A stretch of DNA of 24,000 bases from Conexivisphaerales archaeon. GTDB lineage: Archaea; Thermoproteota; Nitrososphaeria; Conexivisphaerales; DTJL01. The notes beneath the pieces are model-generated. The model was not told the origin of the DNA. It did no database searches and was given only the letters and a program-made list of their open reading frames with translations. Location of the stretch: NCBI GenBank assembly GCA_035543015.1, contig DATKKG010000075.1:1-24000 (forward strand), written 5' to 3'. Each line of letters starts with the position of its first letter. Within the stretch, counting starts at the first letter, position 1. Position numbers and translations under genes: made by a program. Of the stretch, positions 4,506-24,000 are shown one piece after another.

Positions 4506-5564
4506 CTACCTGCCCTCTCCTGAGGCTAGGTCTTCGAGCACCTGGTAGCAGTGCATGGCGTCCTTGGACTCGAGCACGACTATGGCCGTAAGCGTCGCAG
4601 TGATGTATTCGACCAGGTTGATCCCATGTGCCGCCAGCTCCGCCGTTATGACCGCGGCCACCCCGGGGACCTTCATCGTGGCTTCCGACAACGAAATCAC
4701 GACCTCCGAGAGGTTGTCGATCACTCGCAGTATGCTCTTCTGCGGGATCAAGGAGGTTAGCTTCTCCTGATTCTTCGCGTCGAACACCACGCTCACCGTC
4801 TCCAGCGCGGACACCATGTGAAGGGTCTCGCCCCTCGCGTAGTCGACCTCGCCGTTGAACTTGGCAAGCCCGACGGAGACCTCCGGGGAATTGAGTATCA
4901 CGTAGTCGACTATCCTGTCTTTCAGCAGGAGCTTCTGGATGTACTTGCCCACGCCTTCAGGCATCGCCTTGTGCTCGGCGGCGTGGAACCTCTTCACGAC
5001 CTTCACCAAGGGCTCCTTCGTGCTCACCACGCGCTTCTGTCCCTTTGCCCAAGGAAGCACTACCCTGTAGACGTCGACCGGGAAGGCCACGTTCTTCATA
5101 TCGTGAGACTCTAGCTTGATCAGAGGGTAGCGAAGTTTGTTCCGGATCTGGTCGTAGACCTGCTGGGAGATGCACACTTCGCCGCCCGCGGCCATCGGCT
5201 CGATCCTGGAAGCGATGTTGACGGCGTCACCGAAGACGTCGCCGGCCTTATGGACCACGTCTCCCACATGGATGCCTATCCTGACTTTCACCTTCGTCCT
5301 GGCTCTCTGGTTGTAGTCATGGAGGACCTTCTGGATCTCGATTCCGCACCGGGTCGCTTCCAGCGCGCTCCTGAACTCGACCAGGAAAGCGTCACCCATC
5401 GTCTTGACCTCGGTACCTCCATGCCTGCGGAGCACCGGTCGAATCAGCTCCCTGTGCTTCTCAAGGAGCTTAAGGGCCAGTCGTTCGTTCTTCTGCGTTA
5501 ACGCAGAGTAGCCTACGATGTCCGTGAACATGATTGCCGCTAGCCTTCTTTCGGAGCCGGTCAA
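4506..5564 (-). CDS. Class III adenylate (nucleotidyl) cyclase catalytic domain fused to a C-terminal ACT-like domain
   Basis: The N-terminal 170 aa carry the CHD signatures MFTDIVGYS, VKTMGDAFLVEF, RIGIHVGDV and GDAVNIASRIE (both metal Asp, the Lys, and the Asn/Arg pair). The C-terminus, PGVAAVITAELAAHGINLVEYITATLTAIVVLESKDAMHCYQVLEDL, looks like an ACT fold. The only start keeping strand beta-1 is TTG at 5564; the first ATG is residue 12. Confidence 0.85.
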   Translation of the reverse strand: MTGSERRLAAIMFTDIVGYSALTQKNERLALKLLEKHRELIRPVLRRHGGTEVKTMGDAFLVEFRSALEATRCGIEIQKVLHDYNQRARTKVKVRIGIHVGDVVHKAGDVFGDAVNIASRIEPMAAGGEVCISQQVYDQIRNKLRYPLIKLESHDMKNVAFPVDVYRVVLPWAKGQKRVVSTKEPLVKVVKRFHAAEHKAMPEGVGKYIQKLLLKDRIVDYVILNSPEVSVGLAKFNGEVDYARGETLHMVSALETVSVVFDAKNQEKLTSLIPQKSILRVIDNLSEVVISLSEATMKVPGVAAVITAELAAHGINLVEYITATLTAIVVLESKDAMHCYQVLEDLASGEGR

Positions 5565-12060: not shown

Positions 12061-12870
12061 TCAGGCAGCCGGCGTCTTCTTGGGATGCCTGATGACCATC
12101 AAGAGCGTCCCCGCCGTGGCGAGGGCCACCACGATATCGGCGGCCAAAGTCACGTTGGAGACCCCGGCGGCCACCCCGTTCGCCCATTGGTTAGACACTA
12201 TGCCGAACAGAGCCCAGACTATCACCAGACCGTAACCGGGATCCCTTCTCGTTGCCAGCAGTATGAGCGTGATGGCCAGCGCTACGACGGTGACCAACTG
12301 AGCCCAAGTTGTTGCGGCGATGCCGAAGCCGTCCCAGCTAATCGAGACCAAGGCGGAGGAGACGTCAGCTATCGAGGCGATCGTTATCCAACCGAGGTAG
12401 ACGGAGAACGCAAGGTGAACGGCCAGCTTCTCGTTCCTGCTGGCGCCCGACCTCCCTATGTTCAGCCTCAGGTAGATGGCGATAAGCGACAGAAGGAGGG
12501 CGAATATCAGGACCACCGAAGCCGTGATGTATTCGTACTGCCAGAGGAACAGCCAGACGATGTTGAAAAGGGAGCTCAGCATGAAGAGGTAGCCCACCTT
12601 CCCGACAAAGGAGTCGCCCCTGTGGCCCGGCAGAAGCTGGAATACGATGAAAGCGCCCAAGAGCGCATAGATGACTCCCCATATGGCGAACGTGAAGCCT
12701 GCCGGAGTGATCAGCGTCGGAAAGGCGGCCGAGACGTCCGCCGTGTTCACGCCTCCGAGGAGCCTGGTGCTCCCGGCTATGGAGTTGATGACCAGCATGG
12801 CGACATACGCGATCACGTTTCCGACCTGCAGGAAGGAGATTCCTTGCTTCTCTGGCAACCCGGTCCCCAT
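12061..12870 (-). CDS. TspO/MBR-related (tryptophan-rich sensory protein-like) long-form membrane protein
   Basis: Polytopic. GGVNTADVSAAFPTLITPAGFTFAIWGVIYALLGAFIVFQ resembles the roughly 270-aa TspO-related family (…G..TG.VS..YP.LF.PAG.TFSIWGVIY.LL). ATG at 12870; the longest ORF starts with TTG at 12888. The CDS is solid but the family call is from memory. Confidence 0.6.
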   Translation of the reverse strand: MGTGLPEKQGISFLQVGNVIAYVAMLVINSIAGSTRLLGGVNTADVSAAFPTLITPAGFTFAIWGVIYALLGAFIVFQLLPGHRGDSFVGKVGYLFMLSSLFNIVWLFLWQYEYITASVVLIFALLLSLIAIYLRLNIGRSGASRNEKLAVHLAFSVYLGWITIASIADVSSALVSISWDGFGIAATTWAQLVTVVALAITLILLATRRDPGYGLVIVWALFGIVSNQWANGVAAGVSNVTLAADIVVALATAGTLLMVIRHPKKTPAA

Positions 12871-13008
12871 GTCTCGTGTACCTTTCAAGGGTATTTCTGG
12901 ATATCTGTTGCGGCTGGAGAATGCAACCTGTGCCCATGTCTCGCGACTTGCTGTGGCACCAGTCGGAGTTATATGTGGCAGGCAATTCAGAGGAGGCGGA
13001 TACCATAA

Positions 13009-13527
13009 TTGGTGGAGGCAATCAGCTACGAGGTCCTGAAGAAGCTTGGCCAGGTGGAGATAAGGAAGTATCCCCTGATTGTGGCGGCTAGGGTGGACGG
13101 CTACGGCGACGGCGGCTTCAACTTGCTGTTCAACTTCATCTCGGGGAGGAACAGCAAGGCGGAGAAGGTGGCGATGACGGCACCCGTGGTCTCAGAGAAG
13201 ATCGCGATGACGGCACCCGTGCTCTCGGAAGGAGGCTCCATTTCGTTCGTCATGCCAGAAGGCTACACAAAGGAGACCACGCCCCGACCCTTGGATGCGA
13301 GGGTCAAGATCGTCGATTATCCGCCCAGGTACCTGGCGACCCTCAGATTCTCCGGGAGGTGGACCAACAGGGCCTTCGAGTCCAGGTCCAGGGAGATGAT
13401 GAACGAACTTCAAAAGGCTGGCATTGAGCCCAAAGGAGTGCCATTCTCCATGAGGTACAACGCGCCCTTCACACCCTGGTTCATGCGCAGAAACGAAGTG
13501 GCCGTGGAAGTCAGTTATCCTGTGTGA
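13009..13527 (+). CDS. SOUL haem-binding family protein
   Basis: 172 aa. YEVLKKLGQVEIRKYP, the duplicated VAMTAPVVSEK/IAMTAPVLSE motif, and RYNAPFTPWFMRRNEV. Only TTG (13009) or GTG (13012) starts are available. Confidence 0.88.
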   Translation: MVEAISYEVLKKLGQVEIRKYPLIVAARVDGYGDGGFNLLFNFISGRNSKAEKVAMTAPVVSEKIAMTAPVLSEGGSISFVMPEGYTKETTPRPLDARVKIVDYPPRYLATLRFSGRWTNRAFESRSREMMNELQKAGIEPKGVPFSMRYNAPFTPWFMRRNEVAVEVSYPV

Positions 13528-13783
13528 AGACCGGCTGCACCGACAGCCAGGATATCTTCCTAATGCATGGGATGAGGGACTCACAACGAAGCATGATCAG
13601 GACCGCCGAGTCGTTGGCCAAGCTTCGGGTATCCGGTCTCCTACAGAACAAGATACAGACGCAACTTACAACGGCCTTGATTGTCAGGACATAGGGTTGC
13701 GGCTATCATTCCTCAAAAACTGACATCCTATGAGGAGGCCGTGACCCTCGCATTCAAGGGGAACCGTACAGTAGTCCGAACAA

Positions 13784-14470
13784 CTAAGCGCCCCTCTTGA
13801 GCCCGTTCACAAATCCCAAGCCATCTTTGAGGCTGAGGCTGCAGTAGTCCGCCAACCTCTCTCCAGACGCCTTCCCGGTAACCGCTTCTTTGACTCGCTT
13901 CGATTTGAGGAGGCGGCTCCCCACGATTATCACGGAGTCCCTGAAGAGGGTGTCGGCCCTCAACGCCCGAAGGGTCTTGATCAGACTCTCCTCGTTGTAC
14001 CCCATGGTCATGGTCAGGCAGACTATGTCAAAGCGCCGGCCCAGTCCCCTCAGGTACTCAAAGACTCGATTCAAAGAGGCGCCCCTCTCAATGAATTCAA
14101 CGTCCCACCCTTCGCTAGAGAGCAAAGCTGAAAACATCTTCAGCCCTACGTAATGGAACTCTCCTTCAACGCAGTTCAGAAGCACGGCAGACCCCTTTCT
14201 GACCCCCGCCTGCGCTCTGAGTCGCCGAGCGGCCTTCTCGATCATTTCCATGGTCGTCGCCGTCGCAAAGTGCTCGTCGGCGACGCTGATTTCCTTCTCA
14301 GCCCAGAGCTCCCCTATCCTGACCTGGGCCTCTCCGAGGGTCTCCATTATCGGGAGAAGCCTCTCTCCCTTGTCCAGCATGGACTCGACCACAGATCCCG
14401 CCCTTTTCCTGTCCCTATCCAGGACGGCTTTCAAATAGTCGTCCTTGTAGCTGACCGGTTCTCCTTTCAA
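13784..14470 (-). CDS. Stand-alone cobalamin (B12)-binding protein of CarH/AerR photoreceptor type, with no DNA-binding domain
   Basis: The N-terminal helical bundle has IGELWAEKEISVADEHFAT, an exact W-x9-EH. The Rossmann-type B12 domain has VEGEFHYVGLKM (E-x-H-x-x-G lower-ligand His), IVCLTMTM and IIVGS. 228 aa with a TTG start needed to keep helix 1. Confidence 0.85.
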   Translation of the reverse strand: MKGEPVSYKDDYLKAVLDRDRKRAGSVVESMLDKGERLLPIMETLGEAQVRIGELWAEKEISVADEHFATATTMEMIEKAARRLRAQAGVRKGSAVLLNCVEGEFHYVGLKMFSALLSSEGWDVEFIERGASLNRVFEYLRGLGRRFDIVCLTMTMGYNEESLIKTLRALRADTLFRDSVIIVGSRLLKSKRVKEAVTGKASGERLADYCSLSLKDGLGFVNGLKRGA

Positions 14471-14570
14471 CGTGACCCTTCTACGCGGAGAGGTGAATTA
14501 AGCGTTTTCAGATGGGCGGTCTGCGGATTCCCTCTCGCCCATAATCGTTAATAGCAGAAAGGGTCCCCGC

Positions 14571-15404
14571 ATGCCCGTCTTGAACGACGAAGAGCTCACC
14601 AAGACCCTGATGCGCTTCGGAATCACCCGCCAGGAGGCCGAGGTCTTCCTCCTCCTCTCCAAGGTCAAGAAGGGGGGAATCGAATGGATCGGAGGGAGGG
14701 AGGCGGCCTCCGTAGCGCACAAGAGCAGGGTGAGGACCTACCAGGTCCTCGAAAGGCTCGCGGAGCTGGGACTGGTCAGCACCGACTTCAGCAGGCCCAA
14801 GAAGTACTCGGCTGAGGCTCCCCAGGTCGCCGTCAGAAGGCTCATGGGCATCCACGAGGCCCGACTCACGGAGCTGAGCCACCTGGAAGGAGACGTCGTA
14901 GATGGGCTCTTCAAACTGGAGCCGCCTGACCTGGGTTCGCTCAAGGAAGAAGAAGAGGAGGGGAGGACCAACGTCGTCCTCCTTAGGGGGCTCCCCAACA
15001 TTCAGAACACGTTGAGAAAGGTCATGGAATGCGAGGAGCTGGCCATGACCATCAACGAGGAGTCCGCCGCGCATCTAATGAGCACCCTGGCATACCTGAC
15101 GGAGAAGCCGGGACGCCTGATCCTTCTGCTTTCGAAAGAGGTCTCGCGGAGACAGCTCTCCCGGGCCGGCCTGAGCCCCGGCGCTGAGGTGGCCCACTTC
15201 AGGGGAGAGCTCCCAACCATCGTGATGACCGAAAGGCATACCCTCTTCCTGCACTACTCTACCAAGGAATACAGACCACGGCCGCTGTCGCCGCCGACGC
15301 GCAAGTCCAAGGTCACCGACTGCATCCTCGTCGAGGGAGCCTCCTACGTGCACCGGATGAGGGAGGTCTTCGACGCCCTTTGGGATGCCTCCGTGCAGGA
15401 TTGA
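14571..15404 (+). CDS. TrmB family transcriptional regulator
   Basis: N-terminal winged HTH: LMRFGITRQEAEVFLLLSKV...ASVAHKSRVRTYQVLERLAELGLVSTDFSRPKKYSAEAPQVAV, then a coiled linker and a C-terminal effector-like domain. TATA-like gttaatag lies about 22 nt upstream. Confidence 0.85.
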   Translation: MPVLNDEELTKTLMRFGITRQEAEVFLLLSKVKKGGIEWIGGREAASVAHKSRVRTYQVLERLAELGLVSTDFSRPKKYSAEAPQVAVRRLMGIHEARLTELSHLEGDVVDGLFKLEPPDLGSLKEEEEEGRTNVVLLRGLPNIQNTLRKVMECEELAMTINEESAAHLMSTLAYLTEKPGRLILLLSKEVSRRQLSRAGLSPGAEVAHFRGELPTIVMTERHTLFLHYSTKEYRPRPLSPPTRKSKVTDCILVEGASYVHRMREVFDALWDASVQD

Positions 15405-15495
15405 AGTAGTTTCACATGTTGTAAGATATCATCCTAACTAACATCAGTCTTATAGCGTCTCCGAAGTTGGCTTCATTCAGTAAAAGGTGCCAGGA

Positions 15496-17196
15496 ATGAC
15501 ATCCCAGCAGCTGGAAACCGTGACGCAGGAGTCCACACGCATCGACGCAGCAAAGCTAGTCACCCTTCTTGTGCTCAGCCTCGCGCTGGCCATAGTGATA
15601 ATCGACGGGACCATAGTCAACATCGCCCTTCCCTCCATTCAGACCCAGTTCGCCGTTTCGGTCAACGATCTGGAGTGGATAAGCGCCATTTACGCCCTCG
15701 TCTTCGGCGGCTTCCTCCTCACTTGGGGACGCCTGGGCGACGAGTTCGGACGCCGCCGCATTTTCATGGCCGGGATCCTGACGTTCATCTCCGGCTCGAT
15801 GATAACGGGCTTCGCAAACGGCCTTCCTATGATTCTTCTCGGTAGGCTAGTCCAGGGCTTCGGCGCCGCGATGGCTTCACCTTCCACTCTCTCCATACTG
15901 ACGACCACCTTCTACGGCCGCTCCAGAGGGATAGCGTTCGGGATTTGGGGAGCCGTGGCTGGAGCAGCCGGCGCCCTCGGACCTCTGATCGGAGGCTACC
16001 TTACCACATATGCCACCTGGAGATGGGCCTTCCTGATCAACGTGCCAATTGGAATAGTTGCTCTGGCGGGCTCCTACTTCTTCATCAAGGAGTCGATGTC
16101 CAGGTCCGGGCGCTACGACCCCGACTACCGGGGGACGGCTCTAGTGTCATCCGCCCTGGCCCTTCTCATATTCGGACTCATCGAAGGACAGACCTACGGC
16201 TGGCTGGCTGCGAACCAGGTCTTCAAGATTGGCAGCTTCACCTGGCCCTTCACCTCTGTGGCCATAACGCCGGTCGCCATGGCCCTCGGGCTTGTCTTGG
16301 CAGCTGCCTTCGTGCTGAACGAGAGGTCCCGCCTAAGGGCCGACAGAGAGGTCCTCCTCGACCTCAGGCTCCTGGGCTACCGCGGCTTCCGTTTCGGCCT
16401 TCTGACCGTGGGCGTCGTAGCCATGGGTGAGTTCGGCATCTTCTTCATCCTCTCGCTGTATTTCCAGTTGGTAAGGGGGATGAGCGCCCTCTCCACAGGC
16501 TATGCCCTTCTTCCGTTTGCGGGCACCGCTTTCTTCGCAGCACCCCTCGCAGGCCTTCTGTCCTCGCGCATAGGTGCGAAGTGGATAGTCACCACAGGCA
16601 TGGCCCTGGAAGCCACATCTCTGATCTTGCTTTCGCAGCTCACCGGCGTCAATACCTCTCTGACGACGATTTATGCCATTCTGGCGCTCTACGGGGTCGG
16701 AGTTGGGCTGGCGATAGGCCAGCTCACTGGCCTCGTCGTCGGCAGCATACCTCCTCAGAACGCGGGAACGGCTTCGGGCGCCAACAGCACCATTAGACAG
16801 TTGGGCGCGGCCTTCGGCGTGGCCATCATCGGGGCCGTGCTGGTGGCCCAGGTCTCCTCGGTGGGCCAGGCTCAGCTCCAGGCAAGCACAGTGATACCCT
16901 CCTACCTGAAAACGGCGCTAGCTCCCGTACTAAGCCAAGGACTCATCGGAGGCTCTGCCCCATCGCTGCCGCCATCGATCATCAACTCTCCAATAGGCCT
17001 GGCCATTCAGGGGATTTTCAACTCAGCGATAACCGAAGGCGTGCGATACGCCGCCTTGGTTGCCGGGTTCTTCGTCTCCCTAGGGGCGATAAGTTCCCTG
17101 CTACTGCCCAACAACAGGGTCAAGGGAATCAAAGGAGCCAAGAGCTCCCGCAATCAATATACTGAGAGAACCTACAAGGGAGTCGAGGGTAATTGA
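15496..17196 (+). CDS. MFS transporter, DHA2 (EmrB/QacA, 14-TMS) drug:H+ antiporter family
   Basis: LALAIVIIDGTIVNIALPSIQTQF, WGRLGDEFGRRRIFMAG, LLGRLVQGFGAAM and WRWAFLINVPIG, with about 14 hydrophobic segments. The ATG at 15496 has AGGTG 6 nt upstream; the longest ORF starts with GTG at 15487. Confidence 0.92.
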   Translation: MTSQQLETVTQESTRIDAAKLVTLLVLSLALAIVIIDGTIVNIALPSIQTQFAVSVNDLEWISAIYALVFGGFLLTWGRLGDEFGRRRIFMAGILTFISGSMITGFANGLPMILLGRLVQGFGAAMASPSTLSILTTTFYGRSRGIAFGIWGAVAGAAGALGPLIGGYLTTYATWRWAFLINVPIGIVALAGSYFFIKESMSRSGRYDPDYRGTALVSSALALLIFGLIEGQTYGWLAANQVFKIGSFTWPFTSVAITPVAMALGLVLAAAFVLNERSRLRADREVLLDLRLLGYRGFRFGLLTVGVVAMGEFGIFFILSLYFQLVRGMSALSTGYALLPFAGTAFFAAPLAGLLSSRIGAKWIVTTGMALEATSLILLSQLTGVNTSLTTIYAILALYGVGVGLAIGQLTGLVVGSIPPQNAGTASGANSTIRQLGAAFGVAIIGAVLVAQVSSVGQAQLQASTVIPSYLKTALAPVLSQGLIGGSAPSLPPSIINSPIGLAIQGIFNSAITEGVRYAALVAGFFVSLGAISSLLLPNNRVKGIKGAKSSRNQYTERTYKGVEGN

Positions 17197-18017
17197 ACTC
17201 AGCTGAAAGACGTAAGCTGATTTCCAAGTCTCCGATTTCCTTCAGGTACCTCAAGCGCTTCAACACGGCCGCCGGGGCTCTGCATCTCGTCCAAGGGCTG
17301 ATCATGCTGGCCCTAGGCCTCTCTCTGACCTGGAGCCGGGACATCTACACCTACTACCTCAAGTTCTCCGTCATCAGCCTGTCGCCGCCCGTCTTCAAGA
17401 TCGCCCCCAACCCCCAAGTCCTGTTCACCATCAACAACTTGGGCGCCATACTCGCTTCGTTCCTGCTCATATCGGCCGCCGCACACCTCATAATCGCCTT
17501 CGTCAGGAACAAGCAGTACAACGAGAACCTTTCCAAGGGCATGAACCCCTACCGCTGGTACGAATACTCACTGTCCAGCTCAATAATGATCGTCCTGATC
17601 TGCCTATTCCTGGGCATCTGGGACCTCTGGTCGCTGGTTATGATCTTCACGCTCAACGCCATGATGATCATGTTCGGCTACCTCATGGAGAAGATGAACC
17701 AGACCACGGAGAAGACGGACTGGTCGGCCTTCCTCCTGGGCTGCGTCTCCGGAGGTGTTCCGTGGGTGGTGCTGCTGGCCAACTTCGTGGGCCTCATCGG
17801 GTCTACGAACCTCAGGCCCCCGGCGTTCGTCTACATGATAGTGGTCATCTACTTCGTTCTCTTCAACAGCTTCGCCGTCAACATGGTGCTTCAGTACAAA
17901 GGAGTCGGGAAGTGGAAGGACTACCTCTACGGTGAACGCGTCTACATCCTCCTCAGCCTCATCGCAAAGAGCCTGCTGGCGTGGATCGTTTTCGTAGGGA
18001 TCTTCGCGCCGTTCTAG
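17193..18017 (+). CDS. Heliorhodopsin
   Basis: 274 aa. FNTAAGALHLVQ, AAAHLII, YRWYEYSLSSSIMIVLI, LGCVSGGVPW and FNSFAVNMVLQYKGVGKWKDYLYGERVYILLSLIAKSLLAW parallel remembered heliorhodopsin 48C12 motifs. The Schiff-base Lys (SLIAKS), counterion Glu (WYEYS) and both His are retained. The TTG start at 17193-17195 follows an in-frame TAA directly and overlaps the MFS TGA stop (17194-17196). Confidence 0.93.
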   Translation: MNSAERRKLISKSPISFRYLKRFNTAAGALHLVQGLIMLALGLSLTWSRDIYTYYLKFSVISLSPPVFKIAPNPQVLFTINNLGAILASFLLISAAAHLIIAFVRNKQYNENLSKGMNPYRWYEYSLSSSIMIVLICLFLGIWDLWSLVMIFTLNAMMIMFGYLMEKMNQTTEKTDWSAFLLGCVSGGVPWVVLLANFVGLIGSTNLRPPAFVYMIVVIYFVLFNSFAVNMVLQYKGVGKWKDYLYGERVYILLSLIAKSLLAWIVFVGIFAPF

Positions 18018-18036
18018 GCAACCAAGTGAAGACGCC

Positions 18037-18073
18037 GCCTCCGGTTTTCTTTTTGAGAAGCTCAGCCGGAGGC
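18037..18073 (+). terminator. Hairpin plus oligo-T tract after the heliorhodopsin gene
   Basis: gcctccgg (18037-18044) pairs with ccggaggc (18066-18073). The T-rich run ttttcttttt (18045-18054) lies 20-35 nt after the stop, like an archaeal oligo-T terminator. Confidence 0.45.
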
Positions 18074-18221
18074 ACTCCAGAACTTGGAAGGCTTCTCCGG
18101 GACCTCTGCTGACCATGCTTCGCCCAGCCAACAAATGTGACTTGAACCTTGTAAGTTATGATTCTAAATATCTTCCGACTTAAGTAGGATGCGAGAAAGG
18201 TCATTCTTAGGGAAAAACACG

Positions 18222-18632
18222 ATGGCAAACATCGTTCAAACCGCAATACAGGCTGGCTCCTTCAAGACGCTCGTAGCGGCTGTGCAGGCTGCCGGTCTGG
18301 TCGACACTCTGAGCAGCAAAGGCCCGTTCACGGTCTTCGCACCCAACGACGACGCCTTTGCTAAGCTGCCGAAGGGCACGGTTGAGAGCCTCCTTAACGA
18401 CAAGGCCAAGCTCACTTCCGTACTCACCTACCACGTCGTAGCCGGCAAGGTCATGTCAAGCGACGTAAGGACAGGCCCGGTCAAGACAGTCCAGGGACAG
18501 AACGCCCAGATGAAGGTGTCCGGCATCTTCTCCAAGACCGTCATGATCGACAACGCCAAGGTCATCAAGCCCGACATAGTGACCGACAACGGCCTAATTC
18601 ACGTAATCGACTCGGTCATCCTGCCAGAGTAA
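18222..18632 (+). CDS. Fasciclin (FAS1) domain protein, single domain, no signal peptide
   Basis: [50 protein letters not shown]...[10 protein letters not shown]...[13 protein letters not shown] is a canonical FAS1 domain. The family N-terminus fits the ATG at 18222; the longest ORF starts at 18189. Confidence 0.88.
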
Positions 18633-18647
18633 GACTGCCAGAGCGCC

Positions 18648-18653
18648 TTTTTT
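18648..18653 (+). terminator. T6 tract 16 nt after the fasciclin stop
   Basis: gagcgccTTTTTTagc, an archaeal-style oligo-T termination signal. Confidence 0.35.
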
Positions 18654-18791
18654 AGCTCCAGCGGGCCCTCTTTCCTAGAGGTTTCTTGTTTCTACAACAC
18701 CGGTATTCTAGAATGTTCTATGCAGCGTCTCCATGAACTCAATCGGAAGAGCAATACAATAAAGGGGTCTCAGACACTCATATGCCGCACA

Positions 18792-19652
18792 ATGGAAGCC
18801 ACCATGACGTTGGAGGGCAGGGTCTGCATGGTCACTGGCGCCACCTCTGGCATAGGCAGAGCCACTGCCGAGGCCCTGTCGCGGATGGGAGCTGCCCTAG
18901 TCTTGGTTGGTCGCAGTCGGGAGAAGAGCGAGGAGACGATCATGTTCATCAAGGAATCGACCGGCAACTCGAAAGTCGAGTACCTTCTGGCTGACCTGTC
19001 TTCGCAGAAGGAGATCCGAAGCCTGGTGGAGAAGTTCAAGTCAAACCACAGTTCGCTTCACGTCCTGGTCAACAACGCCGGAGCCACCTTCTCGAAACGC
19101 CGTGAGACCGTCGACGGCTTCGAGATGACCTGGGCCACCAATTACCTCAGCTGCTTCCTCCTGACGAACCTCCTCTTGGACCTGCTCAAGTCCAGCGCAC
19201 CTTCTCGCATCGTCAACGTGTCTTCCGGCCTGCACAGGCGTGCGCGGCTCGACTTCAACGACCTACAGCTGAAGGCAGGCTACTCCAGGGATCGCGCCTA
19301 CGATCTTTCCAAGCTCGCCATGGTTCTCTTCACCTACGAGCTGGCCCGCCGCCTTGAAGGGAGCCGTGTGACGGCGAACGCGCTGGGCCCGGGCCTCGTG
19401 AGGACGAACCTTGGAAAGAACGAAGACCTTGCGACCAAGCTGGCCAAGAGCTTCGCCGACCTCTTCGCCGCCAGTGCTGAAGAGGGGGCAAGGACCAGCG
19501 TCTACCTAGCTTCATCCCCGGAGGTGGAGGGGGTCACGGGGATGTACTTCCTGAAGGGCAGAGAGGCGCGATCCTCCGACTTGTCATACAATTCCGAGTT
19601 CGCCAAACGACTGTGGGAGATCAGCGAAGCGCAGACAGGGCTGAAGCGGTAG
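18792..19652 (+). CDS. SDR oxidoreductase of the retinol-dehydrogenase-like (RDH11-14 / WWOX-like) subfamily
   Basis: VTGATSGIGRATA, NNAGA, DGFEMTWATNYLSCFLLTNLLLDLLKSSAPSRIVNVSSGLH and AYDLSKLAMVLFTYELARRL (YxxxK) closely follow the remembered RDH12-type pattern (DGFE...NHLGHFLLT.LLL..LK.SAPSRIVNVSS..H; AY..SKLAN.LFT.ELARRL). TATA-like caataaag lies about 28 nt upstream of the ATG at 18792; the longest ORF starts at 18720. Confidence 0.9.
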   Translation: MEATMTLEGRVCMVTGATSGIGRATAEALSRMGAALVLVGRSREKSEETIMFIKESTGNSKVEYLLADLSSQKEIRSLVEKFKSNHSSLHVLVNNAGATFSKRRETVDGFEMTWATNYLSCFLLTNLLLDLLKSSAPSRIVNVSSGLHRRARLDFNDLQLKAGYSRDRAYDLSKLAMVLFTYELARRLEGSRVTANALGPGLVRTNLGKNEDLATKLAKSFADLFAASAEEGARTSVYLASSPEVEGVTGMYFLKGREARSSDLSYNSEFAKRLWEISEAQTGLKR

Positions 19653-19936: not shown

Positions 19937-21097
19937 GTGTCAAACAGCTATCTCTTTACATCCGAGTCCGTGGCAGAGGGCCATCCGGACAAGGTAGCCG
20001 ACCAGATCTCCGACGCCATCCTTGACGCCATCCTAGCCCAGGACCCAAAGGCCAGGGTGGACTGCGAGACTCTGGTAATGGAGAGCATGGTGATCGTAAC
20101 GGGCCAAATCACCACCAAGGCGACGGTGAACTACAAGAAGGTCATCAGGGGCGTCCTGAGGGACCTCGGTTTGAACAACGCCCGGGACGGCCTCGACTGG
20201 GAGACCTGTGGGATCCTTGTCTCGATCGAAGAGCAGTCGCCCGACATCGCCATGGGCGTCAACAAGGCTCCCGAGGAGATGGGCGCCGGCGACCAGGGGA
20301 TCATGTTCGGGTACGCCTGCAACGAAACGCCGGAGCTCATGCCCCTTCCCATAATGCTCGCCCACAAGATCGTCAAACGGCTGGCGGAGGTTCGAAAGAA
20401 CGGCGAACTGCCCTACCTCAGGCCCGACGGGAAGTCCCAGGTCACAGTCGAGTACACGGAAGGCAAGCCCGTAAGAGTGGAGGCGGTGGTCGTGGCGGCC
20501 CAGCATGAAGAGCACGTCGACAGGGAGAAGATGAGGAAGGACATCATCGAGAAGGTGATCAAGGAGGTCGTCCCCGCGAACCTCATCGACGCCAAGACGA
20601 AGTATCTTATCAACGAGACCGGCAGGTTCGTCGTCGGCGGAACGCTGGCCGACTCAGGGATAACCGGCAGGAAGATCATAGTCGACACGTACGGCGGGAC
20701 CGGCTCACATGGCGGCGGCTGCTTCGGCGGGAAGGACCCCTCGAAGGTCGACCGTTCGGCGAGCTATATGGCCCGCTACATCGCCAAGAACATCGTCGCC
20801 GCGGGCCTGGCCGACAGAGTTCAGGTGCAGATAGCCTACGCCATCGGAGTGGCGGAGCCCATCTCGGTCTTCGTGACGACCTACGGCACAGGCAAGGTAC
20901 CCGACGCCAAGATCACTGAGCTTGTCAAGAAGAACTTCGACCTGCGCCCCGGCATGATCATCAAACGGCTGGACCTCCTCAGGCCCATCTACAGGAAGAC
21001 GGCCTGCTACGGGCACTTCGGGAGGACCGAGCCGGAGTTCACGTGGGAGAAGACGGACGTCGCCGGCGACCTGAGACGGCAGGCTGGGCTGAAGTAG
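19937..21097 (+). CDS. metK: S-adenosylmethionine synthetase, bacterial/eukaryotic MetK type
   Basis: 386 aa. [57 protein letters not shown] and [19 protein letters not shown], collinear with E. coli MetK. GTG start. Confidence 0.95.
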
Positions 21098-21159: not shown

Positions 21160-22629
21160 TCATGAGGCTCCCTCCGGAAGAACCGGCACGTCCCGACTAT
21201 GGATCGTATACGTGAGGGCCGCCGCCAGGTTGACGCCATCGAACGGCTCCGCCGAGCTCCTCATGTACATGTCCGCCACCGGGGTCACCCGGTAGACTCC
21301 CGAGCTCGCGAGTCCCTCGACAAGCTCGTCCTTCTGCGGGCCCTTGGCCGCCAATCCCACCGTCTGCACCCTGTCGACCCCGCCGAAAGCCTTCCGAAAA
21401 CGGAGCCCCTCCACCTGCGCCAGGGCCTCGGCGGGCGTGTCGACGACCACCATCTCTAGGAACCGTTTCCTGTTGTAGAGGTTGAATGAGGGGAACGAGG
21501 AGACCGCATCGTCTAGCCCGCTCGACTTCTTAGAGAGGACGAGGGTCCACATGTTCCTTGGGTCGTCAGACGAGTAGACTTCGCTGCCTCCGAACCTGAG
21601 GATGCGTCGGACGCTCTGCAATGTGAAGATCGCACCCTCCCCCATCTTCATCTCGTAATCACTGCCGACCTTGGCCAGCTCTTCGCCCAGCGTCTCTGCG
21701 AATGCCTTAGCGGCCTCCCATCTCCCAATGAACGCTCCCTGCGTAGGCGAGCTGCAAAGCTGCTGGTCGTAGAGCACTATGTTCGTGGCAAGCTTCTGCG
21801 CGACCGTCCCGTCCGCCGAAGCCCCATCGACAACCACGAAGCCAGTCATCGGCCCGTTGACGAGATATCTCGGATGGAAGGGGTTCTCTAGGATAAGCTT
21901 GCCCACGGTCGTGCGTGCCGGCTCTCCACCCCAGAAGTTCACCAGGCCAAGGTCCCCCCTGCTCAGCAGTGCCCGGAGGGTAGGGCTATCATGGGTGAAG
22001 TAGCTGAGGGCGATAGCTTGAGACATCAGCCGGGCCGTGTCGGATGTTCCAGCCAACTCGCCTACAAGACTGAACACGTCGGCCACTGCCGAGTAGTTCG
22101 CCATTGAAGGGCGTAGAAGGGTGAAGTTGCCGGTTGCCAGAGACAGGACCGTCGGGATCAGGGGTGGAATTAGGGAGTTCCCAGAGCTTATGATGAACAC
22201 CGGCCCCACGGGCATGTACCTGCAGTACTCTCCAGGCGCGACTCGGCTGAACCGAACGAGCCCCTCCAGATTCGGGAACGAGGCGTCCAAGTTCCTCCTT
22301 ATGTTGGCCCCATTCAACACGAAGGGCACAAGGGAGAACTCCATCAGGCTCAGCTTTCTGCCGTAGCCCGCCGCCCGTGAGAGCGAGTCGATGGAGCCGT
22401 CGAGCTTCCCCGAGTCGAGGCGTTCCTTCCAGAGCCTCCCCACCCGGTCTATTACCTCCAACCTCTCTTCGACGGGCCTCTTCGAAAGCTCGAGCTGGAC
22501 CGACCTTCCTTCCGCCAAGAGCTCCCAGACGGAGGCTTCGCTCAGCTCGGATACCTCATGTCCGTCCAACTGCTTCTTCACGACCTCAGCGTGTCGTCCG
22601 AAGACCAGGGGATTAGTGCCCGAGGACAT
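21160..22629 (-). CDS. LuxC-like acyl-CoA (acyl-protein) reductase, ALDH superfamily
   Basis: About 489 aa from the ATG at 22629. TGNFTLLRPSMAN (ALDH-like GNxxxxKPS) and the catalytic-Cys context YDQQLCSSPTQGAFIG. Coupled to an upstream LuxE-like gene: its ATG shares one base with that gene's TGA (TGATG). Confidence 0.72.
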   Translation of the reverse strand: MSSGTNPLVFGRHAEVVKKQLDGHEVSELSEASVWELLAEGRSVQLELSKRPVEERLEVIDRVGRLWKERLDSGKLDGSIDSLSRAAGYGRKLSLMEFSLVPFVLNGANIRRNLDASFPNLEGLVRFSRVAPGEYCRYMPVGPVFIISSGNSLIPPLIPTVLSLATGNFTLLRPSMANYSAVADVFSLVGELAGTSDTARLMSQAIALSYFTHDSPTLRALLSRGDLGLVNFWGGEPARTTVGKLILENPFHPRYLVNGPMTGFVVVDGASADGTVAQKLATNIVLYDQQLCSSPTQGAFIGRWEAAKAFAETLGEELAKVGSDYEMKMGEGAIFTLQSVRRILRFGGSEVYSSDDPRNMWTLVLSKKSSGLDDAVSSFPSFNLYNRKRFLEMVVVDTPAEALAQVEGLRFRKAFGGVDRVQTVGLAAKGPQKDELVEGLASSGVYRVTPVADMYMRSSAEPFDGVNLAAALTYTIHSRDVPVLPEGAS

Positions 22630-23891
22630 CACTTCCCCCTCATCATCTCTTCCATGCTCCCGCCGCATGCCCTTTGTAGATCCCAGCCTTCGTCCGTGGT
22701 GAGCCGTCTGACGAACGAGAACTCCCTGCCGTAATAGCGCGAGGACCTCTTGGCGACCATGAGGTCCCCAGGATAGAAGACCTCGAGCCAGGACGTTGTA
22801 AACGGGTTGAAAATCCCGACGATCCCCTGTTTTCCTTCCTCCCTCACCGGTTTGAAGGTCTTGGGGTCGAGGAGGAAGACCTCTGAAAGCGGGTGAGGTA
22901 CCTTGTCCATGGCCCCATACCTGTCGATCAGCGCCGTCAGGGTCTCGGTCATTCCCAGCACGTCCATGAAGGGCGCCGGACTCCGTGCTTCATTCCGTCC
23001 CCCGGCGACAAAGTGCTTCGCCGAGAGCTCGACGATATCCGGGTAGGGAGGCAGGTCCGAGAACCCTTTCGTTCCGCCCCCTGTCACCACAAGCCCGCCC
23101 CTGCCCAGGCGCACGGGGGGCGCGCCGGAGGCCAGCCGGTACCCCAGTTTCTTGAATAGGCCCATTTCGTCGAACTGCTTGGCCATCAGGTAGACGCCGG
23201 CCGGGGCAGTGAAGAACAGCTTCGGCTCCTCCCCGCTCTTCAGGAACTTCAGGATCCTGTCCCTGTTGGGCTCCAGCTTCTGCCACGGAACTCCGTTTTC
23301 TGCCCCTTCCAGGAGGTCCATCCCGTAGATGAGCTCGATGTCCTTGCGCTCGAGCGCCAGCTGAACGAAGGCGACGAAGCTCAACCTGTAGCGGAGCTCA
23401 GGTGCAGCCATGAAGAGCGCAACGCCCTTCCCCTCCTCCAAGTGCCTCCCATAGACATATTCGAACAAGTCCGTGTTGGCCTTTATCATCACAGCCAGGT
23501 CCAGGGGGCTCCTGTAGACTTTGACCGGCTCCTTCCCCGAGGTCCCGCTGGACTTGAAGTATTCTCCTCCGGGCTCCACGTCATCTATCAGCAGAGGCTT
23601 CTGGCCTTCGCCCCTCAGGATGTCGGAGGGAACCGCTAGCTTCGCTAGGTCCCCCAGTTCAGCGTCGGAAGGAGCTATCGACAGCCTTTCGAAGAGTTCT
23701 GCGTAGTGCCGGCTGTGACGCGCGAAGAACTGGAGCGACTCCCGGAAGAGGCCCTTCCTGAGCTCCATCAGGTAATCTGGCGATCTCTCGAAGAGCGACG
23801 GGTCGTTCACCGTTTCCCAGACTTTGGAGACGTATGGGTCGCCCAACAACTTGCTCTTCTCCGCGGCTTGGAAGATCGCCTGGGCATCCAT
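22629..23891 (-). CDS. LuxE-like acyl-protein synthetase / adenylate-forming (ANL, PaaK/F390-synthetase-like) enzyme
   Basis: FKSSGTSGKEPVKVYRS (P-loop-like SSGTxGxP), VVTGGGTKG, and a C-terminal subdomain PGDLMV...FSFVRR. ATG at 23891; the longest ORF starts with GTG at 23900. Confidence 0.68.
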   Translation of the reverse strand: MDAQAIFQAAEKSKLLGDPYVSKVWETVNDPSLFERSPDYLMELRKGLFRESLQFFARHSRHYAELFERLSIAPSDAELGDLAKLAVPSDILRGEGQKPLLIDDVEPGGEYFKSSGTSGKEPVKVYRSPLDLAVMIKANTDLFEYVYGRHLEEGKGVALFMAAPELRYRLSFVAFVQLALERKDIELIYGMDLLEGAENGVPWQKLEPNRDRILKFLKSGEEPKLFFTAPAGVYLMAKQFDEMGLFKKLGYRLASGAPPVRLGRGGLVVTGGGTKGFSDLPPYPDIVELSAKHFVAGGRNEARSPAPFMDVLGMTETLTALIDRYGAMDKVPHPLSEVFLLDPKTFKPVREEGKQGIVGIFNPFTTSWLEVFYPGDLMVAKRSSRYYGREFSFVRRLTTDEGWDLQRACGGSMEEMMRGK

Positions 23892-24000
23892 GACCAACAC
23901 TTCACTATGAAAGAACCCCGTACATAAGACTTCATGACGAGAGGAGCCTACCGCGGCTTCGGGCCTGATGTGGAGGTTGGCAAAACGAGAAAAGGGCGAC

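Follow-up and report, generated by a model that had tools for sequence, protein, structure and literature searches.

The 24,000-nucleotide stretch analysed here (the window; positions 1 to 24,000 of contig DATKKG010000075.1) comes from a Conexivisphaerales archaeon of the Nitrososphaerota, an archaeon of the soil type, and identical copies of two gene products of the window, g1 and g3, figure among the annotated proteins of a Conexivisphaerales metagenome-assembled genome (MAG). Eight consecutive genes of the window, g1 to g8 (Table 1), encode a TspO-like membrane protein, a SOUL/HEBP protein, a stand-alone protein of the CarH type that is predicted to bind vitamin B12, a TrmB-family protein, a transporter of the major facilitator superfamily (MFS), a heliorhodopsin (HeR), a fasciclin (FAS1) protein and a short-chain dehydrogenase/reductase (SDR). 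A preliminary description of this DNA had listed the same eight open reading frames (ORFs) and suggested that they form a coordinated light-response locus in a presumably non-phototrophic archaeon. We found every one of the ORFs at its given place and, with the curated cutoffs of NCBIfam and Pfam as the yardstick for domain calls, could confirm seven of the eight assignments, the exception being the TspO-related g1, which has no match of its own. A light response is also the reading that we find best supported, but the eight genes are two separately recurring modules that happen to be joined here. They are divided between the two strands into six or more transcription units, and a single operon of all eight is ruled out by the mixed strands, the separate promoters and a T-rich hairpin 3' of HeR.

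Table 1. Genes and regulatory features of the locus, in window coordinates and with products as predicted.
Feature	Coordinates	Strand	Description
g1	12061-12888	-	TspO-like membrane protein
g2	13009-13527	+	SOUL/HEBP protein
Isolated half-site	13665-13671	-	TTGTAAG(TT), TTGTAAGTT half, in the SOUL/B12 convergent spacer; weak as a full site (5.9 bits)
g3	13784-14470	-	Stand-alone CarH-type B12-binding protein
g3/g4 promoter region	14471-14570	n/a	Divergent promoter region
g4	14571-15404	+	TrmB-family, TrmBL2-like protein
Candidate operator	15419-15444		TTGTAAGATATCATCCTAACTAACAT; full palindrome, 5 nt 5' of TATA-like TTATAG (15450-15455), MFS-HeR operon
g5	15487-17196	+	DHA2/EmrB-type MFS transporter, 14-TM
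g6	17193-18017	+	Heliorhodopsin (HeR)
Candidate operator	18149-18174		TTGTAAGTTATGATTCTAAATATCTT; 5 nt 5' of TATA-like TTAAGTAG (18180-18187), FAS1
g7	ORF opens 18189, likely start 18222, end 18632	+	FAS1 protein
g8	18720-19652	+	Classical SDR

The protein encoded by g3 has 228 residues, which form a four-helix bundle together with a Rossmann fold; it starts directly with the bundle and carries no DNA-binding domain. It matches PF02607 at 1.3e-11 (45 bits) and PF02310 at 9e-8. It belongs to a rare family: a search of 5.8 billion proteins yielded 12 homologs with identities of 40% or more. These close homologs have no MerR domain, and the more distant matches are nearly all MerR-fused proteins of the CarH/LitR type. 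CarH homologues are defined by a Wx9EH motif, which caps the upper axial adenosyl group, and by an ExHxxG motif (PMC8156234, PMC9304148). Indeed, W56-x9-E66-H67 of g3 is invariant across 17 aligned sequences, and E104-x-H106-x-x-G109 is invariant throughout the archaeal family and the MerR-fused CarH-like proteins. An AlphaFold2 (AF2) model of g3, with a predicted local distance difference test (pLDDT) score of 90.8, reaches template modelling (TM) scores of 0.79 against the B12 domain of a Chloracidobacterium MerR protein (8JBS/8JBT), 0.80 against photocobilins and 0.66-0.70 against CarH; among corrinoid proteins, the scores are about 0.45 for MttC and 4JGI and 0.73-0.76 for MtmC and MetH. 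In sequence, too, the best match among solved structures is to the photocobilins 8J2W/8J2X/8J2Y (1.6e-12), with CarH next. We rejected the JGI label of a methyltransferase corrinoid protein, given that the NCBIfam scores are far under cutoff, the Wx9EH motif is intact and the neighbouring genes include no methyltransferase. From its motifs and predicted fold, g3 is a putative light sensor that would bind adenosylcobalamin (AdoCbl).

Three groups of bacterial B12 photoreceptors lend themselves to comparison. With the CarH/LitR proteins of Myxococcus, Thermus and Bacillus, g3 shares the two-subdomain B12 module, the Wx9EH motif and the ExHxxG motif with its lower-axial histidine. Unlike them, it is not fused to MerR, DNA binding apparently being contributed by a separate TrmB-family protein, and its host is an archaeon; g3 has Ala in place of the His132 that adjoins the Trp in TtCarH; and the candidate operator described below is a 26-bp palindrome beside the transcription factor B recognition element (BRE) and TATA box, whereas CarH has 11-bp direct repeats in tandem, placed over a sigma-70 promoter. 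The photocobilins SasPcob and AbDPcob are closest in sequence and fold, but g3 has no C-terminal globin-like biliverdin-binding domain and aligns only to residues 8-150 of the 339-aa SasPcob. For stand-alone photocobilins, which are photoreceptors for both B12 and biliverdin, action through protein-protein interactions has been proposed (PMC10979010). Lastly, AerR-CrtJ (PpaA-PpsR) is a two-protein B12 photoreceptor system (PMC5362033, PMC6199135), and the likeness drawn here is one of architecture: a stand-alone B12 photoreceptor acts through a separate DNA-binding factor encoded nearby. In that system, the partner is the PpsR/CrtJ protein with its PAS and helix-turn-helix (HTH) domains, AerR binds photolysed hydroxocobalamin (OH-Cbl), and the targets are photosystem genes.

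The neighbouring g4 passes the TrmB model PF01978 at 1.3e-6 (28.5 bits against a cutoff of 25.6), as do 11 of 11 members of its family (best E-value 7.7e-12), and the family profile aligns to the TrmBL2 structures 5BOX/5BPD at 1e-8 over 187 positions (40-226). It thus has the N-terminal winged helix of TrmB proteins and resembles TrmBL2 over its full length (277 vs 264 aa). Past the HTH no Pfam domain was matched, a sugar-binding domain included, and the TrmBL1 model of NCBIfam scored 16.6 bits against a cutoff of 650. TrmBL2 itself is a chromatin-like global binder without a sugar-binding domain, and we know of no cofactor partner for it. The g4 family differs from these proteins in being very small, with 13 representatives at E<=1e-10 among 1.84 billion proteins, and in always lying beside a B12-binding gene. 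All 13 are too short for a fused TrmB-B12 protein.

The TrmB-B12 pairing is obligate: the two genes are adjacent in all six contexts examined (the window, L082, L096, L087, L090 and L093). A metagenome scan with g3 gave two loci, L081, from the same organism, and L082, and synteny was read from look-ups of homolog contigs. In the window, L082 and L096 the pair is divergent, with about 70% identity for the B12 protein and about 84% for TrmB; in the more distant L087, L090 and L093 it is codirectional, TrmB before B12, with identities of 40% and 40-47%. An ortholog of the FAS1 gene g7 (60-63% identical) adjoins every one of these distant pairs, lying divergently upstream in 3/3 and separated from it by an MMPL transporter gene in 2/3. 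PNPOx-like, UvdE, DUF1722 and SOUL genes also accompany the pair in L090, and SOUL is linked to it again in L096, four genes away. From this constant partnership, g4 is the putative DNA-binding partner of g3, with which it would interact physically. In the searchable literature we found no description of a TrmBL2-like protein paired with a stand-alone CarH-type protein, of its restriction to a small group of archaea, of its constant association with FAS1 and a transporter, or of the operator.

Some further features of these loci may be recorded. In L090-92, a PNPOx_N gene directly follows the B12 gene, and an integrated element with a phage-type integrase and a D5 N-terminal/primase protein (11820-16711 of L090-L092) lies about 0.5 kb 3' of the run TrmB / B12 / PNPOx-like / TruD / UvdE. 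In the window, the convergent spacer between SOUL and the B12 gene (13528-13783) is unusually long at 256 bp; L096 has an NmrA-like gene, a DUF6789 gene and a 120-aa ORF at this position, and the spacer may be a deletion scar.

Intergenic comparison yielded the consensus of a candidate operator, the 26-bp palindrome TTGTAAGTT-N8-AACTTACAA. The search for a shared operator had been proposed in the preliminary description, and it was successful for the regions upstream of the MFS gene (15405-15495) and of FAS1 (18074-18221); there was no site in the g3/g4 region 14471-14570 or in the DNA upstream of the SOUL and TspO-like genes, and 13528-13783 held a half-site only. TTGTAA-N13-CTNACA, searched for exactly, has a single match in the window (15419-15443), against 0.07 matches expected even with one mismatch allowed. 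It is found again in L087-89, at the FAS1/MMPL promoter, and in L090-92, downstream of TrmB, and is absent from 1.28 Mb of other loci. A relaxed search (one mismatch, spacing of 12-14 nt) was unspecific, giving 53 matches in the 1.28 Mb of mostly AT-rich loci, and was discarded. The heptamer TTGTAAG is present at 13665(-), 15419 and 18149, each time in intergenic DNA of the island, and nowhere else in the 24 kb of the window. A position weight matrix (PWM) of the 26-mers ranks the 15419 site first in the window (23.4 bits) and the 18149 site second (17.9 bits); for comparison, the best scores of 300 windows simulated with a Markov-1 model had a 99th percentile of 15.5 and a maximum of 18.6. 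A match of 10.5 bits at 17152-17177, within the 3' end of the MFS gene and 16 nt before the HeR start, is under the 95th percentile of this null (13.6).

FAS1 orthologs in L084/85, L087, L090 and L093 share one promoter layout, in which the palindrome is followed by about 5 nt, the sequence CTTAAGTAG, about 30 nt and the ATG, and the spacing from operator to TATA-like box is equal at these promoters and at both window promoters. Because this layout is common to the orthologs, FAS1 most likely starts at ATG 18222 and not at 18189. In L084/85, the operator-bearing FAS1 gene is directly upstream of an HeR gene (81% identical to g6), and HeR is thus tied to the operator in a second lineage. The g3/g4 promoter region is conserved in L082 and L096; about 25 nt separate its TATA-like AATCGTTWATAGC, one of the shared elements, from the TrmB ATG. 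No autoregulatory operator was seen in this region, where only the TATA-like boxes are conserved. Palindromes near BRE/TATA are the binding sites of TrmB-family proteins, and we infer that g4 is the protein that binds the palindrome.

The first of the two operator-bearing units is the MFS-HeR operon. The stop codon of g5 overlaps the start of g6 by 4 nt (17193-17196), and the two genes therefore form one operon. g5 matches MFS_1 at 1.4e-49 and passes the DHA2/EmrB model TIGR00711 (239.5 vs 230.2 bits). g6 matches PF18761 at 2.4e-95 (319 bits, cutoff 26.7) and NF038020 at 2.6e-105 (351 bits, cutoff 100), and aligns with TaHeR (6IS6) at 1.3e-62, with K259 on the lysine of LSLVAKS and E124 on the glutamate of RWFEYS, which is the residue mutated in 7CLJ. 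H31, H98, E124 and K259 show no variation in 25 homologs. We take K259, in TM7, to be the Schiff-base lysine and E124, in TM3, to be the counter-ion glutamate, as in TaHeR. On these matches g6 is a heliorhodopsin. Downstream of HeR, the T-rich-loop hairpin TTTTCTTTTT at 18037-18073 (+) has a folding energy of -21.4 kcal/mol (z = -2.0) and likely marks the end of the MFS-HeR transcript as a presumed terminator; together with the separate promoters, it indicates at least two regulated units. The overlapping junction also exists in L106, where the MFS gene (767-1955) is truncated at its 5' end (residues 174-567 are left) and frameshifted near residue 360, with an ADH-like N-terminal fragment 5' of it and the 4-nt overlap kept; this broken gene could be a pseudogene or an assembly error.

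The second unit, g7, encodes a single-domain cytoplasmic fasciclin (PF02469 at 7e-41). The preliminary description had seen a possible carotenoid binder in it, a suggestion that we find weak: against solved structures, g7 is far closer to Fdp (1W7D, 1.6e-35) and CupS (2.3e-31) than to the carotenoid-binding AstaP (2.8e-11), and a role as an AstaP-like protein was rejected on this ground. FAS1 adjoins HeR in L084/85, L059, L064, L065, L067 and L072. Nor did the label of a retinol dehydrogenase (RDH)-like enzyme for g8 find specific support. g8 is an SDR (adh_short, 6.3e-34) whose closest solved relative is the mycobacterial SDR 3RD5, and it passed no model of a specific subfamily (PRK06197, the closest group, 218 bits with a cutoff of 268; LPOR, 85 bits and far under its cutoff), so that only generic SDR membership was retained. 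SDR genes 46-52% identical to g8 directly follow HeR in L067 and lie within the same locus in L064. A near-perfect palindrome, TTCTACAACACCGGTATTCTAGAA, which differs from the TTGTAAG operator, was noticed at window 18690-18713, directly 5' of the annotated SDR start. With 24-27 residues ahead of its Rossmann motif region, the SDR may have been annotated with too long an N-terminus, in which case TTCTACAACACCGGTATTCTAGAA would belong to the promoter.

The SOUL assignment of g2 was borne out by HMM search: it matches PF04832 at 2e-38 (132.6 bits, cutoff 27) over profile positions 2-172 of 173, and HEBP2 structures at 4e-6. As a clear member of the SOUL/HEBP family, it is a putative binder of haem or tetrapyrroles. 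The case of g1 is more complicated. It has no Pfam match even at E<=10. A hypothetical protein of Conexivisphaerales matches it with 100% identity, and the version annotated by NCBI has 265 aa. Of 30 homologs 54-86% identical to g1, 11 match the TspO model PF03073, with a best E-value of 5.9e-9; members 55-60% identical to g1 are among those that pass, and its closest homologs, P0122 and P0124, fail. Five homologs that we inspected scored 27-36 bits (cutoff 24) over nearly the full profile, within their first ~170 residues, and many homologs are named benzodiazepine receptor or tryptophan-rich sensory protein by JGI and NCBI. On the other side, a profile of the 30-member family retrieved no TspO among solved structures, and Foldseek of the AF2 model of g1 (pLDDT 86, nine helices) against the PDB gave nothing below E=1. 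The kinship with TspO/MBR thus appears real but transitive, because it is homologs, and not g1, that pass PF03073: some members of the family match nearly the whole TspO_MBR profile with their N-terminal region, whereas g1 does not pass the HMM, possesses roughly four additional helices and shows no detectable similarity to solved TspO. The 'TspO-related' label can therefore be kept only in a qualified form, defensible by transitive homology alone, for a divergent family whose N-terminal region is TspO-like and whose C-terminus is longer by about 100 residues. g1-type genes recur with SOUL and HeR in L015, L064, L022 and L100-105.

How far the locus is conserved was judged on 80 HeR loci among the matches listed, taken from species-representative genomes of Bathyarchaeia, Methanobacteriaceae, Asgard archaea and a few others, with HeR 60-73% identical to g6, and searched with all window proteins; the closest HeR relatives (77-86% identical) are outside this set and were reached via exact-protein look-ups. 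The eight-gene block is not conserved, and two sub-modules recur separately. The comparative-genomics check envisaged in the preliminary description thus went against it, as the block is scattered in the closest relatives. Its claim of co-localisation beyond chance holds for the sub-modules SOUL-HeR, TrmB-B12-FAS1 and TspO-like with SOUL and HeR, but not for the block as a whole, which is unconserved even in the nearest relatives. SOUL is present in 29 of the 80 listed loci, in 25 of them no more than 700 bp from HeR; these 25 genes are all upstream of HeR (18 divergent, 7 codirectional), and they occur in 10/16 Methanobacteriaceae-type loci and 15/64 others. Against uniform placement within +/-10 kb, this closeness has P = 2e-25, kinship between the loci being ignored. 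Ten control proteins from the window flanks matched 0-1 of the 80 loci each.

When all ORFs within 6 kb of HeR were clustered in 84 loci, SOUL was the most frequent neighbour family (30/84), followed by Pyridox_ox_2 (17), Abhydrolase_5 and ABC (10 each), MFS (8), UvdE, DUF1722 / 2-thiouracil desulfurase and DUF6512 (7 each), and AhpC/TSA and FAS1 (5 each). Subsets of the island genes thus recur beside HeR across archaeal phyla, in the company of the UV and reactive oxygen species (ROS) genes UvdE, AhpC/TSA, DUF1722 and PNPOx-like. A subclade of Bathyarchaeia (L059, L064, L065, L067, L072) has the order FAS1-SOUL-HeR, with SDR next in L067. Starting from a TspO-like homolog, one of three contexts read TspO-like / DUF6512 / PNPOx-like / UvdE / SOUL / HeR. 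UvdE and PNPOx-like genes, recurrent near HeR elsewhere, are absent from the window locus. The Pyridox_ox_2/PNPOx-like gene (~159 aa), second among the HeR neighbours, has a median distance of 119 bp from HeR, and it sits between SOUL and HeR in L008, L009, L013 and L029. The HeR clade 60-73% identical to g6 extends over Bathyarchaeia, Methanobacteriaceae, Thermoplasmata, Hadarchaeota, Asgard and one Patescibacteria-binned contig (L041); such identity, unusually high across distant hosts, suggests horizontal spread or, for L041, mis-binning.

This chromophore neighbourhood of HeR is largely known. According to the parts of the two surveys available to us, Chazan et al. (2021; bioRxiv 10.1101/2021.02.16.431466) reported SOUL, AhpC/TSA, PNPOx, photolyase, MFS/ABC transporters and cobalamin-binding proteins as HeR neighbours and proposed a link between HeR and oxidative stress, and Bulzu et al. 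(2021) reached a similar conclusion. Our ranking over 84 loci reproduces and extends the pattern in these parts, which, unlike the present locus, feature no TrmB-B12 pair, operator or FAS1 linkage and mention cobalamin-binding neighbours as a category only.

The genes flanking the island in the window are unrelated to it (Hjc, a zinc-ribbon/TM2 protein, MetK, LuxC, HMG-CoA reductase and HSP20). An adenylate/guanylate cyclase gene lies at 4506-5564 (-; PF00211, 1e-21), and in the nearest relatives its homologs (51-60% identical) are 0.8 kb from a TspO-like gene (L086) and ~6.5 kb from HeR (L083), which may reflect leftover synteny or a connection in signalling with the light locus. At 19937-21097 (+) there is a bacterial-type MetK with three S-AdoMet_synt domains (1e-40 to 1e-67) in this archaeal genome; the usual archaeal S-adenosylmethionine synthetase is a distinct, archaeal-type enzyme. 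The region 21160-23900 (-) holds a LuxC-like acyl-CoA reductase of 502 aa, its 5' end overlapped by a 423-aa ORF without a Pfam match, and may belong to a fatty aldehyde or alcohol pathway.

Taken together, we favour the reading of a mosaic light/photo-oxidative-stress locus in which a B12 photoreceptor made of two proteins switches the HeR operon and FAS1, and we give this reading about an even chance of being right. Module A would consist of effectors around HeR (the SOUL, TspO-like, MFS, FAS1 and SDR proteins), and module B would be the regulator, with g4 binding DNA and g3 binding AdoCbl, the two modules being joined in this genome. g3 would sense light through photolysis of its bound AdoCbl, and photolysis would alter the association of g3 with g4, by analogy with AerR and CrtJ or with the B12 domain of CarH and its own MerR domain. 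g4 would bind the 26-bp palindrome, which, 5 nt upstream of the TATA-like box, would thus lie over the BRE position; and since the palindrome stands before both the MFS-HeR operon and FAS1, light would switch the transcription of both, most likely by derepression in the light, the presumed direction. Among the effectors, the SOUL and TspO-like proteins may handle photosensitising tetrapyrroles, the MFS protein may serve export, and HeR may sense light at the membrane. SOUL, TspO-like and SDR may lie outside the regulon and be tied to HeR by function, because no operator precedes them. A bolder version, in which this is the first archaeal B12 photoreceptor system, made of two proteins and gating an HeR operon and a cytoplasmic fasciclin via a TrmBL2-like partner, we put forward tentatively, as possible rather than probable.

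Several points weigh against this reading. The light dependence is deduced from family signatures and neighbours. PF02310 barely passes its cutoff on g3 (32.4 vs 32.1 bits), and measured against the reference lower-axial motif D/ExHx2G/P-x41-SxT/V-x22-27-GG, the sub-clade of g3 departs from CarH, with TxT (153-155) for SxT at x43 and GS (184-185) for GG at ~x28; the 40%-identity clade retains SxT and GG. The 18149 site has a perfect distal half but a degenerate FAS1-proximal half, and the PWM was built from five non-window sites of only four lineages. Because the FAS1 promoters are orthologous, their likeness could be partly inherited and not selected. The PWM and heptamer searches of the window found no operator upstream of SOUL, TspO-like, SDR or the g3/g4 pair. 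None of the 80 listed HeR loci, from other phyla, has a TrmB-B12 pair, and the link between module B and HeR is thus seen only in the window and, indirectly, in L084/85. The nearest relatives also differ: the 77% identical HeR of a Nitrososphaerota MAG follows kdpABC and has no island gene within 10 kb; the 81% identical HeR of L084/85 has only FAS1, directly upstream; the 86% identical HeR of L106 keeps the overlapping MFS junction, but TrmB, FAS1 and the operator are not on its 3.5-kb contig; and the 79% identical g1 of L086 has glyoxalase, DinB and cyclase genes as neighbours and no SOUL. The computational evidence for module B is coherent and specific, but comes from few lineages.

Part of this speaks for a plainer view, namely that the island is a variable-region mosaic without common regulation, composed of independent units, and that its chromophore theme reflects the loose tendency of HeR to lie near stress genes. 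The division of the genes between two strands and among six or more transcription units, and the absence or alteration of the block in the nearest relatives would fit this view; L086, for example, is partly syntenic with the left flank of the window (cyclase 60%, TspO-like 77-79% identical), but has glyoxalase and DinB at the position of the island. The fall in GC content to 0.54-0.56 across HeR and FAS1, and the horizontal spread suggested by HeR identities of 60-73% across archaeal phyla, would fit it as well. It leaves unexplained, however, why one operator is common to two units and to distant TrmB-B12-FAS1 loci, why TrmB and B12 are obligately paired, and why SOUL-HeR adjacency is highly non-random when control genes from the flanks are not recurrent, and we hold it to be unlikely. 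The TrmB-B12 pair could also serve cobalamin or tetrapyrrole homeostasis, with g3 reporting the corrinoid level to g4, which would control the MFS/MMPL transporters and FAS1 and SOUL as carriers. g3 is a predicted B12 binder by HMM and fold, its homologs are labelled corrinoid proteins by JGI, a transporter accompanies the pair in 3/4 of the lineages with enough contig, SOUL and TspO-related proteins belong to tetrapyrrole-binding families, and CarA is a CarH-like protein able to act without B12 and light (PMC8156234). Against homeostasis stands the Wx9EH cap, which marks AdoCbl photoreceptors off from MetH/corrinoid proteins and from CarA and is intact and invariant in g3. In addition, the nearest relatives and best-fitting structures of g3 are photoreceptor modules, most corrinoid-protein matches superpose worse, the scores against corrinoid-protein NCBIfam models are far under their cutoffs, no methyltransferase or cobalamin-biosynthesis genes lie near g3, and the neighbours of the pair include UvdE, DUF1722 and PNPOx-like genes and, in the window, HeR. 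We regard homeostasis as quite unlikely.

Lastly, the genes beside HeR might form a chromophore-supply cassette that offsets a missing blh, with FAS1 as the carrier of a carotenoid or retinoid, the SDR as the enzyme that converts retinol and retinal into each other, and the MFS protein as importer or exporter of the pigment. FAS1 is directly beside HeR in L084/85, L065 and L072, and SDR directly after it in L067; a FAS1 domain can bind carotenoids, as in AstaP (PMC10147662); HeR genomes are generally without blh, and another route to retinal has been postulated in the part of Chazan et al. (2021) available to us; and RDH-like genes have been reported in Bathyarchaeota (PMC7110647). However, g7 is far nearer to Fdp and CupS than to AstaP, and carotenoid binding by FAS1 is described as an algal neofunctionalisation, a cyanobacterial AstaP homolog having bound no carotenoids; both points weigh against FAS1 as a carotenoid carrier. 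FAS1 orthologs also accompany TrmB-B12 in loci without HeR within 8 kb, the SDR is under the cutoff of its closest subfamily model and near HeR in only 2/80 listed loci, and no carotenoid cleavage enzyme was found among the window proteins. A supply cassette is accordingly the most improbable of these explanations.

If the favoured reading of a B12-switched locus is true, it would matter in several ways. B12 photoreceptors have so far been characterised in bacteria (CarH/LitR, AerR and photocobilins), and they would be extended to archaea and to a new family of DNA-binding partners. In the bolder version, HeR expression would be gated by a second, cytoplasmic photoreceptor, and an archaeal light response that has gone unrecognised would have FAS1 with a lipid- or drug-type transporter as its core output. 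Surveys of HeR context have so far given loose oxidative-stress associations, whereas a defined regulator, operator and small regulon would provide a concrete experimental handle. The strong adjacency of SOUL and HeR across two phyla makes SOUL a candidate for a direct partner of HeR, and a compact light-switchable TrmB/B12 pair with its 26-bp operator could serve as an optogenetic part in archaeal hosts.

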